This document shows, piece after piece, positions 2,026 to 6,572 of a stretch of DNA of 10,807 bases. The position numbers were made by a program, and so were the translations under genes. This stretch comes from Parcubacteria group bacterium (GTDB lineage: Bacteria; Patescibacteriota; Minisyncoccia; Phycocordibacterales; JABMOB01). The stretch lies in NCBI GenBank assembly GCA_013204345.1, contig JABMOB010000032.1:1-10807 (forward strand), in the 5' to 3' direction. Numbering within the stretch: the stretch's first letter is position 1; each line of letters starts with the position of its first letter. The notes below the pieces were generated by a model. The model was not told where the DNA came from. It saw only the letters and a program-made list of their open reading frames with translations, and did no database searches.

Positions 2026-2118
2026 TAATACCATAAAGGAACATGTAGTTCCTTGACAATAAACCAACAATTTCCCGCTTTAAAACGGGAATTAAACAAA
2101 CAGAAACGGAGCACAAAA

Positions 2119-3033
2119 ATGTATTGGTCTAAAAAATTTCTACTGGCAATAAGCCTACCCTGCATCGTGATCGCCACCGTACTTTTTACGATACTTCTTG
2201 CCTCTTTGGCGAAAGTATCAAACCCTGTTGGCACAGGGTCTGCTGTCGGACTGGTAGCTGGAATTATCTTTGTTGGGCTCTTACTGCCCTACTCCAGTAT
2301 CAGTGTTGACGCGTACAAAGCAAAGGTGACCAAAGACTACTTTACGGGCAAATTGTATGCCTACACTGACAAATTCAGTCTCAGGTGGCCTTGGGAAATT
2401 CAGCAGGGAGACGAGATAATTCTCGAAAGAGAGTTTGTCGTCTCCTCTGGAGATCCTACGGTTGAAGAAATGGGAACTGACGACCATCAAGCCGTTGACG
2501 GTCCGACAATGTCTATTGGGTGGGCTATCCCCACCCGAGTCGACAAAGAACGTGTTTTGACATTCATCCAAAATGACCCGAAAACATGGAAGGTCATTCT
2601 TCACGGAATGATCGGAAAACTGGTAGGTGACGTGATCGGCAACGAACAATCAGAAAATGTTTTAAAAAAGAGAAAGGAGATCAGCGACAAGATCACTCGG
2701 GCATTCGAAGGTGATAAGAGAAATTACTTTGAGGAAATATACGGACTCAAAGTCGGACCCATCGAAATTCGTAAAGCAACTCAAGACGCCACTTCGGCAC
2801 AAGGAAGAGCTGAGATAGCCAGAGCACAAAATCGCGCAGAGGCAATCAAAGAGCTCATCGATGGAGGAGTACCAGCAGAAGAAGCAGTGCGGGCAGTTCA
2901 GTTAATGTTTGGAGAAATCGCCCCCCTGATCCACGAAGGTCTACCTCCAAACCTGAGTGTGTATGCACCAGGAGCATCAGGATTCATGGCGGGATCGGTC
3001 GGACGAGTAAAATCGGGTAATCAGAGAACTTAA
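2119..3033 (+). CDS. SPFH/band-7 (stomatin/prohibitin/HflKC-like) membrane protein, ~304 aa. The start is placed at ATG 2119 (GGAG 7 nt upstream) rather than the track's TTG at 2053.
   Basis: An N-terminal TM anchor is followed by an SPFH-like core (LRWPWEIQQGDE ... VDGPTMSIGWAIPTRVDKERVLTF ... DPKTWKV). The characteristic C-terminal coiled-coil/Ala-Glu-rich segment is present (ATSAQGRAEIARAQNRAEAIKEL). GC content is ~50%, against ~35% in flanking genes. Confidence 0.6.
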   Translation: MYWSKKFLLAISLPCIVIATVLFTILLASLAKVSNPVGTGSAVGLVAGIIFVGLLLPYSSISVDAYKAKVTKDYFTGKLYAYTDKFSLRWPWEIQQGDEIILEREFVVSSGDPTVEEMGTDDHQAVDGPTMSIGWAIPTRVDKERVLTFIQNDPKTWKVILHGMIGKLVGDVIGNEQSENVLKKRKEISDKITRAFEGDKRNYFEEIYGLKVGPIEIRKATQDATSAQGRAEIARAQNRAEAIKELIDGGVPAEEAVRAVQLMFGEIAPLIHEGLPPNLSVYAPGASGFMAGSVGRVKSGNQRT

Positions 3034-3052
3034 GCAAAACAGGAGATATGGA

Positions 3053-3574
3053 ATGACGACAACACCCACATCGATAGCAGGAACATCCGCAGTGCCCACA
3101 CAGACCCACAGGTCTGTGAATATCGGCAAGGTGGCTGGATCATGGATCATCGGAGTTACGGTAATTGTGACATTGCTAATCATAATAGCAATGGCTATCG
3201 GAAGAGTCGGAGCGGCACCAGCTCCCACCGTCTCACAAGGAGAAGGAACGCAGGTGAACAATCCGAATCCGGGGATGATACCGTTCGGACAGTATGATCT
3301 TCCCCAAAAGGGAATCATCACAGTCAACCCCGGCGATCCGAGCACCTCACCGTGCAAGGAAAACGGATGGGGCGAGGTGAGGGGACACGCAGGGTTACGT
3401 GTAGAGTACACGTGGCGAGGAAGGGTGTGGATCAAAACGGAGAGGGGTAATGAACTCCTGTCTGGAGATCCTCATTCTTTCACGGAAACTCCGGCGGCGA
3501 ACGTTGTTTGGTTTATGTCACGGGAAGACGGATCTGTGGATGTGGAATATGAGTATGTTCCACTGAAGCGCTAA
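3053..3574 (+). CDS. Small membrane-anchored hypothetical protein (173 aa), co-transcribed with the SPFH gene. Possible SPFH partner (NfeD-like role); this is speculative.
   Basis: Good SD AGGAGA at 3041-3046, 6 nt before the ATG. The product has an N-terminal Thr/Ser-rich segment, one TM helix (WIIGVTVIVTLLIIIAMAIG) and a beta-rich C-terminus. It shares the GC-rich island composition. Confidence 0.55.
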   Translation: MTTTPTSIAGTSAVPTQTHRSVNIGKVAGSWIIGVTVIVTLLIIIAMAIGRVGAAPAPTVSQGEGTQVNNPNPGMIPFGQYDLPQKGIITVNPGDPSTSPCKENGWGEVRGHAGLRVEYTWRGRVWIKTERGNELLSGDPHSFTETPAANVVWFMSREDGSVDVEYEYVPLKR

Positions 3575-3593
3575 ATCCGGCAAAGCACAAGGG

Positions 3594-3630
3594 CGGAAGG
3601 AAACGCAAGTTTCCCTCCGTCCTTTTTTTT
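3594..3630 (+). terminator. Rho-independent terminator for the SPFH operon
   Basis: An 11-bp stem (cggaaggaaac / gtttccctccg, one mismatch) with a GCAA tetraloop, followed by tcc + T8 at 3623-3630. Confidence 0.7.
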
Positions 3631-3635
3631 ATAAA

Positions 3636-3672
3636 ACAAAACCGCTCTGATCTTGTCGAAGAGCGGTTTTGT
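3636..3672 (-). terminator. Rho-independent terminator for the minus-strand pilin operon (convergent with the + terminator)
   Basis: Stem aaaaccgctc / gagcggtttt around a 13-nt loop. On the minus strand it is followed by a U-rich tract (revcomp of 3623-3637). It lies immediately downstream of the stop of CDS 3687..3953. Confidence 0.55.
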
Positions 3673-3686
3673 AAACAGAGCCTGTT

Positions 3687-3953
3687 TTATATCCCCGAAT
3701 TTGGTGGTACCGGAATTCCAAATGTTCCAAGAACAAGATTTATTATCCCGTACACCGCAACCATAATAAACAAACCGATAACCCCATACATTATATTTTT
3801 TTTGCCTTTTTCTCTCCCCTCATCACTTCCAGTCTTTCCAATAAATTGGAAAATACCAAAGAAAAAATAAGCAAAAGCAATAGCAAACATCAATCCTATT
3901 ACAGGATTCAGAATAGCAGCATTTATTTTATACAATAGGGGCCAAATCGTCAT
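3687..3953 (-). CDS. VirB2/TrbC-like (CPR T4SS-type) pilin paralog 1, 88 aa. It lacks an N-terminal cleavable signal peptide.
   Basis: Two hydrophobic helices separated by a charged loop (GSDEGREKGKKNIMYGVIGLFIMVAVYGIINL). The core aligns with the five upstream paralogs. Confidence 0.6.
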   Translation of the reverse strand: MTIWPLLYKINAAILNPVIGLMFAIAFAYFFFGIFQFIGKTGSDEGREKGKKNIMYGVIGLFIMVAVYGIINLVLGTFGIPVPPNSGI

Positions 3954-3993
3954 TATTGAGTATAGTGGTCAAAGACTAACCAGACTTAATACC

Positions 3994-4356
3994 TTAAATA
4001 TTCGGAATTGTCACAGAACTACTAGTATTATCTGTAATACCAAATACTCCCTGAAGATAACTGATAATACCGTAAAGAGAACCTGTTACAAAAAGTGCAA
4101 CGACCCCCCAAAGCATTATTTGCTTACCTTCACCTTTCTTTTCTTCATCACCAGCTGAAAGAATAAACTTTGCAACACCGTAAAAGAAATACAAAAGCTC
4201 TAGACCAAAAGCTACAGGAATGAGAGTGCGGACGATACTAGCAACTCCTCCGGCTAAATCATTCAAACCCTGAAGATTTGAACTACCAGCAGCAAAAGCC
4301 AAAGCTGGTAATGCCATTACCCCAACACCCACTATAAATTTAACTGTTTTTTTCAT
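3994..4356 (-). CDS. VirB2/TrbC-like pilin paralog 2, 120 aa, with a Sec signal peptide (AFA|AG)
   Basis: Signal peptide, helix 1 (LIPVAFGLELLYFFYGVAKFIL), charged loop (SAGDEEKKGEGKQ), helix 2 (IMLWGVVALFVTGSLYGIISYL). Confidence 0.7.
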   Translation of the reverse strand: MKKTVKFIVGVGVMALPALAFAAGSSNLQGLNDLAGGVASIVRTLIPVAFGLELLYFFYGVAKFILSAGDEEKKGEGKQIMLWGVVALFVTGSLYGIISYLQGVFGITDNTSSSVTIPNI

Positions 4357-4490
4357 TTTTATTAAATAAAACTTAATAATTAATAATAGAACACATAATA
4401 AACGACCCTTTTAAATAAATACTAAACATTACAATAATAACACATATAAATCGGTCAAGAAAGTGAACTGTGGATAAGAAAGCTCGCCAC

Positions 4491-4646
4491 TTCTTTAAAA
4501 TGACCAGAATGCTTCAGTGATAAAGAAATTATACTCGTCTCGTTTACGAAATATTGAAAACTCGGCCTATTCTGGCCTCAAACATTCAATATTTCTACTC
4601 GACTCGATAATTTCCAATCACCTCCCGCAATGGTCATTTTAAAGAA
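4491..4646. repeat. Nested inverted-repeat element inside the 462-bp gap in the pilin array. Outer 15-bp IR ttctttaaaatgacc (4491-4505 / 4632-4646). Inner 11-bp perfect IR gaaatattgaa / ttcaatatttc (4549-4559 / 4586-4596). Central ggcc-tattct-ggcc.
   Basis: Read directly from the sequence. No ORF of 60 aa or more on either strand in 4357-4818. Confidence 0.5.
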
Positions 4647-4818
4647 AAGGTTCACTTCAGTGGAAAAAATCACCTGCGGACAGTTTTAAAAAGGTTATTC
4701 CTCGCTCTTGTGGAAAGACACATGGATACTTAGTGAGCCGGTTCTCATCCACCAACGAACAAGCTCACTCTAGCAAGAGAGTGGAATATTTCACTAACAT
4801 TCATTTAAACCCCTTGAT

Positions 4819-5172
4819 TTATGGGTTATAGACAGCTGGCGCTGGTGTAGTCTCCAAACCGAGCTCATACTGAATAAAATATATGACGCCCCACAAAGAT
4901 CCCATTACAAAAATAGAAATAACGCCCCACAACATAAGACTCTTGCCCTCCTTAATAGCATCCTCATCCCCTTCTCTAGATTTAAAGACAAATTTTGCGA
5001 CTCCGTAGAAAAAAACAATCAAAGCCAAACCAAAAACAACAGGAATAACAAGATTGATCAAAGTGAGAACGGCAACTAAAAGATCCTGAACATTAGAAAT
5101 GGCAAAAACCAAAACTGGTGTAAGGATGAGAGTAATTAGTGTTAAAAATTTATACATATTATTTAAAAACAT
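4819..5172 (-). CDS. VirB2/TrbC-like pilin paralog 3, 117 aa, signal peptide (VFA|IS)
   Basis: Conserved core LIPVVFGLALIVFFYGVAKFVFKSREGDEDAIKEGKSLMLWGVISIFVMGSLWGVIYFI. Confidence 0.7.
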   Translation of the reverse strand: MFLNNMYKFLTLITLILTPVLVFAISNVQDLLVAVLTLINLVIPVVFGLALIVFFYGVAKFVFKSREGDEDAIKEGKSLMLWGVISIFVMGSLWGVIYFIQYELGLETTPAPAVYNP

Positions 5173-5175
5173 TGA

Positions 5176-5616
5176 TTAAATACAAGGCACCGAACCTATT
5201 TGATCAGCTGGTATATCGGCACAATAAGGAGCACCACCACTAGTACCCGCCGTTGGTGCATTCTCCGGTAAAAGATGGAAAGCTCCAAAACCAAAACTAT
5301 TTGTAAAAAAAGCTAAAATACCCCATATAGAGATCATTACAAATAAAGAAATAACACCCCAAATCATCAAACTCTTCCCTTCTTTGACAGAATCCTCACT
5401 ACCCCCAGCTTTGATAAATTTGACCAACCCCCAAAAGAACGAAAGAATGGCGAGACCAACTAATACTGGAATAAGTAAATTTACAATGCCTATAATAATA
5501 CCCACAAAACCCTTGAAATTTGTTGGTTGAGCGACAGCAAATACGAAAAATGGAGTGAAAGCAAAAAATCCAAAAATAACAACTGGCAAAATTTTTCGTT
5601 TATGTTTGATATTCAT
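5176..5616 (-). CDS. VirB2/TrbC-like pilin paralog 4, 146 aa, signal peptide, C-terminal Cys pair (YCADIPADQIGSVPCI)
   Basis: Core LIPVLVGLAILSFFWGLVKFIKAGGSEDSVKEGKSLMIWGVISLFVMISIWGILAFF. Separated by 3 bp from paralog 3. Confidence 0.7.
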   Translation of the reverse strand: MNIKHKRKILPVVIFGFFAFTPFFVFAVAQPTNFKGFVGIIIGIVNLLIPVLVGLAILSFFWGLVKFIKAGGSEDSVKEGKSLMIWGVISLFVMISIWGILAFFTNSFGFGAFHLLPENAPTAGTSGGAPYCADIPADQIGSVPCI

Positions 5617-5618
5617 AT

Positions 5619-6119
5619 TTAGACTCTAATTTGACTAATCGTAGCCTCAATACCATTTGCAATTACCCATGCACCCAAAAGAACGGCTGTACCAACAACA
5701 GCCCACTTGAAAGTATCTTTAGCTTTTTTAATTTTGTCTTCACTATCACCTGCTGTAACAAAAAGAAAACCAGAATATATTATGAAGATCACGGCTATAA
5801 CCGAACCTAAAGGAAGAACAACATTATTGGCAAAATCTGTGATAAGCCCTGTAAAGGTACACGACCTTAGGGGGTTGGGGAAAGTGCCTGTCTGACAGTT
5901 ATCATTTGAATTTGGGATTGGATTCGTACCACCGGTTGGATTAGGGCTTGTGCCGCCAGTGGGGATTGGATTCGTACCACCGGTTGGATTAGGGCTTGTG
6001 CCGCCGGTATGGGAATTAGCATAAGATATCTGAACAAAAGTTGGTGCCACTATAACAGCAAAAATCAATAAAAATACCCCCGTAACACACAATGTTGGTA
6101 AAAATTTTTTTATAATCAT
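5619..6119 (-). CDS. VirB2/TrbC-like pilin paralog 5, 166 aa. Signal peptide, then a Pro/Thr-rich tandem-repeat linker (TGGTSPNPTGGTNPIP x2), then a Cys-X12-Cys loop, then the pilin core.
   Basis: Core VIAVIFIIYSGFLFVTAGDSEDKIKKAKDTFKWAVVGTAVLLGAWVIANGI. Separated by 2 bp from paralog 4. Confidence 0.65.
   Translation of the reverse strand: MIIKKFLPTLCVTGVFLLIFAVIVAPTFVQISYANSHTGGTSPNPTGGTNPIPTGGTSPNPTGGTNPIPNSNDNCQTGTFPNPLRSCTFTGLITDFANNVVLPLGSVIAVIFIIYSGFLFVTAGDSEDKIKKAKDTFKWAVVGTAVLLGAWVIANGIEATISQIRV
5914..6009. repeat. 48-bp direct tandem repeat x2 (one copy 5914-5961, the second 5962-6009, with 1-2 mismatches at the 3' end) encoding the Pro/Thr/Gly linker of pilin paralog 5
   Basis: gggattggattcgtaccaccggttggattagggcttgtgccgcc repeated back-to-back. 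Confidence 0.8.
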
Positions 6120-6134
6120 AAATTTTTTATTTAA

Positions 6135-6572
6135 TTATCTAATCAAATCTAAAATAGAACCGTCCGGTAAATTTGTTCCTGAAACATCTGGTCTCAAAAG
6201 TGCGTTGGTAAGAGTATACACGATAAGCCAACCAGCCAAAACAAAGAACAAGCCCCACAAAACTTTGGTAAATATATCTTTACCTTGTTTTATTTTACTT
6301 TCATCACCCGCAGAAGTTAGAAAAAGATATCCGGCATAAATAAAAGCGGCAGCTGAAAGAGGTATGGAAAGTTGGACTAAAAAGTTTATTATATTTCTAG
6401 CGAGGATAACCAGATCATCAAAACCACACTCTCGACTTACGCCATTTACACCAGCACAATCTGGAACAATGCCAGCAGAAACAAACAAAGGCGTCATGAA
6501 CAAACCGAGTATAAAAATCGGTAAAATGAAAGCGGAAATTTTTTTAAATATTAAATTCATGTTAATTGACAC
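6135..6572 (-). CDS. VirB2/TrbC-like pilin paralog 6, 145 aa. Signal peptide (VSA|GI), Cys-X11-Cys loop, pilin core. The start could instead be the internal ATG near 6560, which would remove the 11-bp overlap with the upstream gene.
   Basis: Core AAAFIYAGYLFLTSAGDESKIKQGKDIFTKVLWGLFFVLAGWLIVYTL. Confidence 0.65.
   Translation of the reverse strand: MSINMNLIFKKISAFILPIFILGLFMTPLFVSAGIVPDCAGVNGVSRECGFDDLVILARNIINFLVQLSIPLSAAAFIYAGYLFLTSAGDESKIKQGKDIFTKVLWGLFFVLAGWLIVYTLTNALLRPDVSGTNLPDGSILDLIR

Follow-up and report, generated by a model that had tools for sequence, protein, structure and literature searches.

Introduction

VirB2-like pilins have been reported from 1,948 Patescibacteria assemblies, and the main text of that survey counts 441 arrays, each of 2-11 pilin genes, across 383 assemblies, delimited with Pfam families PF18895 and PF04956 and showing a mean identity of 25% and a maximum of 54% (Quinonero-Coronel et al., 2025; PMC12102498). 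According to the same text, a pilin gene lies near virB4 (within about 20 genes) in 1,135 of the 1,948 assemblies; such proximity is not obligatory. In Southlakia epibionticum ML1, a six-gene pilin array is essential (Wang et al., 2023; PMC10633639). Its genes, SEML1_0014-0019, are six tandem, same-strand and divergent members of PF18895 that encode 103-185 aa, some of them also matching TrbC/VirB2, and the products are the predicted pilin subunits of a monoderm system resembling type IV secretion systems (T4SSs) (PMC10633639). No secretion apparatus other than a T4SS-like system with a pilin array has been shown to be essential for a Patescibacterium to grow. A 2025 review describes the T4SS-like systems of Patescibacteria as unique among monoderms and only speculates on a pilus, an MPF-FATA ancestry has been reported for Patescibacteria VirB4, and in cultured Paceibacterales the T4SS-pilin genes rank near the top in expression among genes of unknown function. 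Here we describe a six-gene pilin array at positions 3687-6572, minus strand, of a 10,807-nt stretch of contig JABMOB010000032.1 from a Parcubacteria group bacterium. This whole stretch is referred to below as the window, and all positions are those of the window.

The array had been proposed, from the letters of the DNA and without database searches, to encode six divergent VirB2/TrbC-like pilin paralogs of a family documented in Patescibacteria (the sequence-only reading). Arrays of this kind have indeed been published for Patescibacteria (PMC12102498, PMC10633639), and the locus is a further example: six consecutive pilin genes in a Patescibacteria host, 19-45% identical to one another in pairwise comparison, fit the published arrays, for which the main text of PMC12102498 gives a range of 2-11 genes. 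What is new here is that the array belongs to a gyrA-linked operon headed by a gene for a solute-binding-protein (SBP)-like protein, that its paralogs fall into positional classes, and that it contains a control region with a DnaA-box-like site. The main text of PMC12102498 mentions neither an SBP partner nor a gyrA-linked location, and in that text positional orthology and an internal DnaA-box-like region are likewise not described.

Pilin genes and protein family

The six open reading frames (ORFs) all lie on the minus strand and encode 88, 120, 117, 146, 166 and 145 aa, read from 3687 to 6572; in the order of transcription, the spacers between them are 15, 2, 3, 462 and 40 bp. The ORF list confirms the genes, coordinates and spacers of the sequence-only reading, and an alignment agrees with the common helix-loop-helix plan that it described, in which a hydrophobic helix is followed by a G-[DS]-E-[DE]..K-x-[GA]-K loop and a second helix in all six proteins. 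Hydropathy marks two core hydrophobic segments in each of the six. A simple heuristic identified a Sec-type n-region and h-region with an AxA-like site (VSA↓G, SYA↓N, VFA↓V, VFA↓I and AFA↓A) in five of the six, the number originally proposed, and the same heuristic detected no signal peptide in the 88-aa pilin. The proposed extent of 3687-6572 stands for the ORFs and needs revision at its upstream end. The first pilin gene more probably starts at ATG 6560 (141 aa), which is also the JGI gene call and lies 1 base past the stop codon of the SBP-like gene, than at GTG 6572, and the transcription unit reaches upstream to the SBP-like gene and probably to a methyltransferase gene. The 166-aa pilin has a match of 100% identity in NCBI protein HQ402_03495, which comes from a metagenome-assembled genome (MAG) labeled Parcubacteria group bacterium.

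PF18895 (T4SS_pilin), the family named in the sequence-only reading, is the top Pfam match of all six pilins, and four of them exceed its curated cut-off of 26.6 bits. The two that fall below it (24.4 and 23.0 bits) share 40-45% identity with a paralog that passes. Against PF04956 (TrbC/VirB2; cut-off 27.9 bits), the 166-aa pilin scores 25.4 bits with an E value of 1.7e-5. In a set of 117 relatives, made up of the 166-aa pilin and its database relatives together with the five remaining window paralogs, PF18895 was matched by every sequence and PF04956 by 70 individually (E <=1e-3, best 7.1e-10). The link to the VirB2/TrbC superfamily follows from these matches of relatives, and the kinship originally claimed for the window pilins thus holds at the level of the family. 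NF045849, a pilin-like conjugal transfer protein of Mycoplasma integrative and conjugative elements (ICEs), was matched over nearly the full model (E ~5e-8) by the 88-aa and 166-aa pilins, at 32.5 and 32.2 bits respectively against an equivalog cut-off of 40 bits, and was unmatched by the remaining four window pilins; this similarity agrees with the MPF-FATA origin reported for Patescibacteria VirB4. We conclude that the six genes almost certainly belong to the Patescibacteria T4SS_pilin family, within the VirB2/TrbC superfamily, and that they are ancient paralogs.

AlphaFold2 modeled the 166-aa pilin as the two-helix hairpin that had been anticipated, with helices at residues 89-123 and 127-165 (pLDDT 92-95) preceded by a signal-peptide helix and a disordered linker (36-88); a hydrophobic hairpin core of this kind, about 70 residues long, is the hallmark of PF18895. 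The family as a whole is very large: clustering at 50% identity leaves 75,542 representatives (E <=1e-3). Some of these (P0233-P0240) hold four to eight pilin domains per polypeptide, e.g., 820 aa with eight matched stretches, and are explained either by genuine polypilin fusion or by tandem genes that were read through in gene calling under another genetic code. Two other identities were considered for the window proteins and rejected. Type IV pilins are disfavored by the Sec-type N-termini with AxA-like sites, the lack of a G↓F(T/S)LxE class III signal, and the hairpin core without a globular domain. As for phage holins, PHROGs gave two weak matches only, both to families of unknown function, the Pfam scan returned no holin family, and the neighbors are housekeeping genes.

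Positional classes and selection

Related loci were fetched with the 431-aa SBP-like protein as probe, which yielded 80 loci (45-57% identity) from Paceibacteria-type MAGs, and their pilin genes were identified with a hidden Markov model built here. For each window paralog, named A, B, C1, C2, C3 and D in the order of transcription, the best match was located in each of the 51 arrays that have five or more pilin genes. The best match of class A was the first pilin gene in 49 of the 51 arrays, that of class B the second in 49, that of class C3 the penultimate in 35, and that of class D the last in 45. The class C trio is held together by a mutual identity of 40-45% (C1-C2 45%, C3 with either of the others 40-41%), and class C is present in 3-6 copies per related array. 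At least two Cys residues are kept in 66 of 68 class A members, and class D is always short (80-106 aa). The paralogs are therefore positional orthologs, with the first, second and last positions fixed and the copy number of the middle class variable.

Amino-acid identity and the ratio of nonsynonymous to synonymous substitution rates (dN/dS) were compared between the window and its closest relative, locus L086 (Table 1). All eight operon genes are under purifying selection. Together with positional orthology, this favors fixed, distinct roles over interchangeable variants. The sequence-only reading had suggested a diversified repertoire consisting of either major and minor pilins or variant subunits; of the two, major and minor pilins with distinct roles fit the data better than interchangeable variant subunits do.

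The L026 locus carries, inside its pilin array, a 2170-aa ORF (L026:9747-16259, plus strand) that appears to be a natural adhesin-pilin fusion. Its product combines a signal peptide with He_PIG, Big_9 (Ig), cadherin, PKD and fn3 repeats and a P/T-rich linker, and has a pilin domain of class B at the C-terminus; the linker of class B in the window is shorter and stands in the same place. Within that window linker, a 48-bp tandem duplication suggests a recent length change of an exposed stalk; the closest ortholog has 162 aa.

Operon and conserved neighborhood

The locus is best explained as a chromosomal operon in the order methyltransferase, SBP-like gene, A, B, C1, C2, internal regulatory region, C3, D and terminator (Table 1), as indicated by the tight spacings, the conserved internal region, and the terminator-like hairpin after the last gene. 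The methyltransferase gene is probably the first of the transcription unit, and the SBP-like and pilin genes are likely co-transcribed. In nearly all of the 80 related loci, 5-8 same-strand pilin genes follow directly after the SBP-like gene, with the first of them 0-25 nt away. As a reverse check, three relatives were selected via the pilin rather than the SBP-like protein, and they have the same context. In 65 related loci the gene directly before that for the SBP-like protein encodes a methyltransferase, and a gene-cluster analysis gave the conserved block order as S1, Lactamase_B, small protein, GyrA, methyltransferase, SBP and pilins. The window starts at the end of the source contig, a JGI contig of 29 kb, and the rest of the 16 kb covered of this contig contains housekeeping genes (Pth, S1, Lactamase_B and GyrA).

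Profile searches of the PDB matched the SBP-like protein to carbohydrate SBPs (4r9f at 1.9e-16). Its AlphaFold2 model (pLDDT 91.6) consists of a membrane helix at residues 3-26 followed by an MBP-type SBP fold, and the top Foldseek matches of the model are oligosaccharide SBPs (E ~1e-22). A Foldseek match to Clostridioides difficile PilW (7t31) was discounted, as 7t31 is presumably an MBP-fusion crystallization construct. The protein has more than 2,100 homologs at about 50% identity, a degree of conservation far above that of the pilins. Next to the SBP-like gene there is neither an ABC permease gene nor an ATPase gene. The gene order suggests that the SBP-like protein may work together with the pilins.

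Table 1. Features of the pilin operon in the window, with amino-acid (aa) identity and dN/dS of its genes relative to locus L086
Feature	Position	Strand	Description	Amino-acid identity (%)	dN/dS
Class I S-adenosylmethionine-dependent methyltransferase, 175 aa	7881..8408	-	Pfam Methyltransf_31/11/25; 23 bp upstream of SBP-like gene	94.9	0.06
Membrane-anchored SBP-like gene, 431 aa	6562..7857	-	Pfam SBP_bac_8, SBP_bac_1; MBP/oligosaccharide type	93.5	0.07
Pilin class A, first position	6135..6572	-	Signal peptide; Cys pair C39, C49 in N-terminal extension; PF18895 29.8 bits	87.3	0.11
Pilin class B, second position	5619..6119	-	Signal peptide, P/T/G/N-rich linker, Cys pair C75/C87, then hairpin; PF18895 41.4 bits, TrbC 25.4 bits	85.0	0.11
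Perfect 48-bp tandem duplication, 1.9 copies, in class B linker	5914..6005	-	TGGTSPNPTGGTNPIP encoded twice; Tandem Repeats Finder 100% matches, score 184		
Pilin class C1	5176..5616	-	Signal peptide; Cys pair C132/C145 in C-terminal extension; PF18895 30.8 bits	84.4	0.16
Pilin class C2	4819..5172	-	Signal peptide; fastest-evolving member; PF18895 23.0 bits, E 8.7e-5	75.2	0.15
Lineage-specific extra DNA in gap	4478..4818	-	About 275 nt absent from closest relative L086		
Conserved regulatory region before penultimate pilin gene	4357..4531	-	DnaA-box-like site, promoter-like hexamers, AT-rich leader		
Pilin class C3, penultimate	3994..4356	-	Signal peptide; first gene past internal regulatory region; PF18895 24.4 bits, E 3.1e-5	89.3	0.18
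Pilin class D, last	3687..3953	-	88 aa, bare two-helix hairpin without signal peptide; most conserved; PF18895 35.7 bits, NF045849 32.5 bits	95.5	0.05
Intrinsic-terminator-like hairpin	3633..3672	-	Followed by UUUUGUUUU; closes pilin operon; -20.1 kcal/mol, z = -6.8		
Convergent terminator-like hairpin	~3589-3632	+	-23.7 kcal/mol, z = -5.6; followed by run of eight U		

Several features of the surroundings were recorded in addition. Arrays of related loci are usually followed, as in the window, by a convergent small gene and an SPFH/Band-7 gene, and the convergent SPFH gene is kept downstream of most of them. In the window this region (2053-3574, plus strand) holds the SPFH/Band-7 gene and a gene for a 173-aa single-pass membrane protein without a family match, which converge on the pilin operon and resemble SPFH-NfeD operons; its G+C content is 0.48-0.53, compared with 0.35-0.40 elsewhere in the window. 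Between the two convergent operons, at 3585-3675, terminator-like hairpins stand back to back, one per strand. In L021 (14008-15087, minus strand) and six other loci (cluster c22), a membrane protein of about 359 aa with a GGCESGNG motif and no Pfam match is encoded directly downstream of the array and could be a cell-wall hydrolase partner. An IS200-like Y1 transposase occurs in the block in L058 (2358-3023, plus strand) and 14 other loci (cluster c13), often between GyrA and the SBP-like gene, so mobile elements do enter the otherwise stable GyrA-pilin region. A 939-aa ORF about 5-8 kb from the array of L020 (2288-5107, minus strand) matches MVP_shoulder (2.1e-22) and Vault_3 (6.4e-10), domains of the eukaryotic major vault protein, a match that is unexpected in a Patescibacteria MAG. 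"Uncultured Candidatus Saccharibacteria bacterium" is the record title of many TPA_asm MAGs with the Paceibacteria-type block, and that of L040 reads Nitrospira sp.; such records are probably mislabeled or mis-binned.

Internal control region

The 462-bp gap between C2 and C3 is an enlarged version of a conserved break, since in almost every related array the penultimate pilin gene is set apart from the one before it by 80-160 bp. The gap contains TTATCCACA at 4469-4477 on the minus strand, the only exact copy in the window; we take TTATCCACA to be the DnaA-box consensus. Downstream of it are the promoter-like hexamers TTGACC-16-TATTGT (4458-4431), followed by an AT-rich leader with a recurrent GGTCGTTTA motif. 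The 175 nt adjoining the start codon of C3 are 94.9% identical to L086, compared with 75-92% for the coding genes (synonymous divergence, dS, 0.33-0.69), which indicates that this non-coding stretch is under constraint.

Across the related loci, the exact TTATCCACA sequence is found at a density of 1.41 per kb in these gaps, as opposed to 0.054 per kb in other intergenic DNA and 0.011 per kb in the rest of the loci, an enrichment of about 130-fold over the latter. Twelve of the 30 exact sites in about 900 kb fall in these gaps, all in gene orientation, and 30 of 53 gaps contain the site with at most one mismatch. The enrichment suggests that the last two pilin genes may be controlled by DnaA or by another factor. 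We found no literature on DnaA-linked control of pilin genes. An origin of replication was considered for the gap and rejected, as the window has one exact DnaA box and its sites with at most two mismatches (50 found, 39 expected) are not above chance.

The additional length of the gap comes with a 156-nt hairpin at 4491-4646 that has perfect 16-nt arms and a predicted fold of -72.1 kcal/mol (z = -7.3). Only its right arm is shared with L086, while the left arm lies in the extra DNA (Table 1) and looks like an inverted partial copy of ancestral upstream sequence. The hairpin belongs to no known RNA family, as Rfam (E up to 1) and a tRNA scan of the whole window returned nothing. Two further explanations were discarded: blastx returned nothing credible that would make the gap a decayed pilin gene, and a repeated mobile element is disfavored by the lack of copies of the hairpin in 82 related loci. 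A metagenome scan for the hairpin termini found none, a weak negative because the scan missed the source contig as well.

Search for secretion machinery

The window contains no VirB4, VirB6 or VirB11 gene, in agreement with the sequence-only reading, and 16 kb of the source contig yielded no match to a VirB4, VirB6 or VirD4 family. Among the large ORFs situated up to 10 kb from an array at more than 80 loci, no T4SS ATPase or channel family was present in the best 25 of the 65 families pooled, although a very divergent component could escape this search; three large ORFs near arrays have no Pfam match at E <=1e-5. The array therefore lies neither within a T4SS/Mpf cluster nor near virB4, as judged from the window, the 16 kb of contig and the surroundings of its relatives. 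Published tables are consistent with this arrangement: Table S3 flags Paceibacteria pilin matches as "VirB4 proximity: No" and places VirB4, TrsD and VirB3 at a great distance from them, and the complete genome that holds the related locus L033 is listed as VirB4-positive. Machinery encoded elsewhere in the genome, one of the two options in the sequence-only reading, fits the T4SS-free surroundings, the published rows far from virB4, and the VirB4-positive L033 genome.

Proposed mechanism and alternatives

We propose that the array encodes six non-equivalent, Sec-inserted hairpin subunits of a surface fiber that is assembled by a distant T4SS-like machine, and assign this mechanism as a whole a probability of roughly 0.55. 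Five pilins would enter the membrane via Sec and shed their signal peptides, and the sixth, class D, would insert as an uncleaved hairpin. Each subunit would then have two transmembrane helices, a short charged cytoplasmic loop, and both termini outside the cell, a topology that is argued from the Cys pairs kept in the class A extensions and from the L026 adhesin fusion, in which the mature pilin N-terminus is expected to be external. A VirB4/TrsD/VirB3-type machine encoded elsewhere would pull the subunits from the membrane and polymerize them into a mixed surface fiber for host-cell contact. Classes A and B, with their Cys-paired, linker or adhesin-type N-terminal extensions, may be display or minor subunits, and the copy-number-variable class C may make up the bulk of the fiber. 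Class D, which is short, signal-peptide-less and the most conserved, may serve as the base, anchor or primer of the fiber. C3 and D, which come last in the operon, would be under their own conserved control region with its DnaA-box-like site, possibly in a DnaA-linked manner.

A far more elaborate scheme can be drawn from the same features, and we regard it as speculative and improbable. Here the pilins would have left a T4SS cluster to join a methyltransferase-SBP-pilin operon and would form a stratified fiber, with class D at the base, class C in the shaft, and the Cys-bearing and adhesin-type classes distal. The membrane-anchored SBP-like protein, coupled to the fiber, would sense or hold host glycans, and DnaA would time the expression of the last two subunit genes via TTATCCACA, giving a cell-cycle-gated host-attachment organelle that may work without a canonical T4SS.

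Several results weigh against a pilus assembled by a distant machine. A filament made by these proteins has yet to be observed in a Patescibacterium, and the literature only speculates on one. No assembly machinery is linked to the array, and the 16 kb of contig covered do not establish VirB4 in the source genome. None of the window pilins reaches the TrbC cut-off of PF04956, a comparison of the family profile with Agrobacterium VirB2 (PDB-verified) showed no similarity (hhalign probability 0.14), the same profile matched no solved pilin among PDB sequences, and Foldseek found no significant PDB match to the pilin hairpin model. In this last search T-pilus VirB2 ranks third and fifth at E >1, with ATP synthase subunit c next to it; a helical hairpin is so simple that the fold search cannot discriminate and speaks neither for nor against VirB2 homology. 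Finally, the block from GyrA to the pilins includes plainly unrelated genes (GyrA and S1) that are equally syntenic, and synteny alone is thus no proof that the SBP-like protein or the methyltransferase works with the pilins.

Ordinary small inner-membrane proteins, holin-like or stress-related, would resemble pilins as any hydrophobic hairpin does, and they would account both for a fold search that cannot separate the hairpin from subunit c and other hairpins and for the missing sequence-level match to solved pilins. This explanation is nevertheless very unlikely, since all six proteins match one curated family, 70 of the 117 relatives match TrbC/VirB2 with E values down to 7e-10, a sub-threshold match leads to the Mycoplasma ICE pilin-like conjugal-transfer protein, no holin or annotated phage family was matched in PHROGs or Pfam, and members of the family are found inside the essential T4SS cluster of S. 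epibionticum. A T4SS-independent membrane module, in which the SBP captures host oligosaccharide and the hairpin proteins form or organize an uptake or signaling complex without any filament, draws on other evidence: the SBP-like gene stands within 0-25 nt of the first pilin gene in nearly all loci, its product is confidently modeled as an oligosaccharide-type SBP with a membrane anchor, neither an ABC permease or ATPase gene nor a T4SS gene is nearby, and a filament has never been demonstrated. We consider such a module unlikely, given that five of the six pilins have predicted cleavable signal peptides along with decorations of extracellular type (Cys pairs, P/T-rich linkers and the giant adhesin fusion), and that the same family is present inside the S. 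epibionticum T4SS cluster, where there is no SBP. The linkage of the window pilins to the SBP-like gene may also be historical, as the housekeeping neighbors are equally syntenic.

The array could also be a variation cassette of interchangeable major pilins that are alternately expressed or diversify rapidly against hosts or recognition, as proposed for VirB2 of Anaplasma and Bartonella, an analogy that has been offered in the literature. Low paralog identity (19-45%), the 3-6 copies of the middle class, the ongoing length change implied by the perfect 48-bp linker duplication, and a rate of evolution in the middle paralogs that is two to three times that of the flanking genes would all be expected of such a cassette. 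Conservation of the first, second and last positions in order and identity across class-level divergence would not, and neither would purifying selection on every paralog (dN/dS <=0.18). The genes form one or two co-directional transcription units without invertible or silent-cassette features, and the class architectures, which differ in the signal peptide and in N- or C-terminal extensions, argue for different jobs. A variation cassette is therefore quite improbable, and a fiber of non-equivalent subunits is the reading that we prefer.

Comparison with known systems

For the largest class, Paceibacteria, the locus sharpens rather than changes the existing picture, by showing ordered and distinct subunit classes away from virB4. 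The layout of the array, which is led by the SBP-like gene in nearly all related loci and includes a conserved control region, provides concrete hypotheses for cultured Paceibacterales.

The Mbov_0395 family (NF045849) of Mycoplasma ICEs likewise consists of small two-helix proteins, in conjugation of the MPF-FATA type in a monoderm, whereas the window pilins, at about 32 bits under a cut-off of 40, are not equivalog members and the window has no ICE context. The VirB2, TrbC and TraA pilins of the Agrobacterium T-pilus, RP4 and F share with the window pilins a small size, a signal peptide, and a two-helix hydrophobic hairpin with a short charged loop. Those pilins, however, belong to T4SSs of diderms, while the host of the window array is presumably monoderm, its genes lie outside a T4SS, and where those systems have one major pilin it has six paralogs, which carry extensions. 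The array of S. epibionticum lies inside a T4SS cluster beside VirB6-like, PrgI and VirB4 genes and has no SBP, whereas that of the window is in a GyrA-methyltransferase-SBP block; the former is from Saccharimonadia and is known to be essential, and the latter is from Paceibacteria. Anaplasma, Bartonella and Rickettsia also have several divergent, tandem virB2-like genes in a host-associated bacterium, for which the main text of PMC12102498 presents surface diversification as the proposed role. In contrast to these, the window paralogs are class-wide positional orthologs under purifying selection and with differing architectures, which points to fixed roles and not to antigenic variation.

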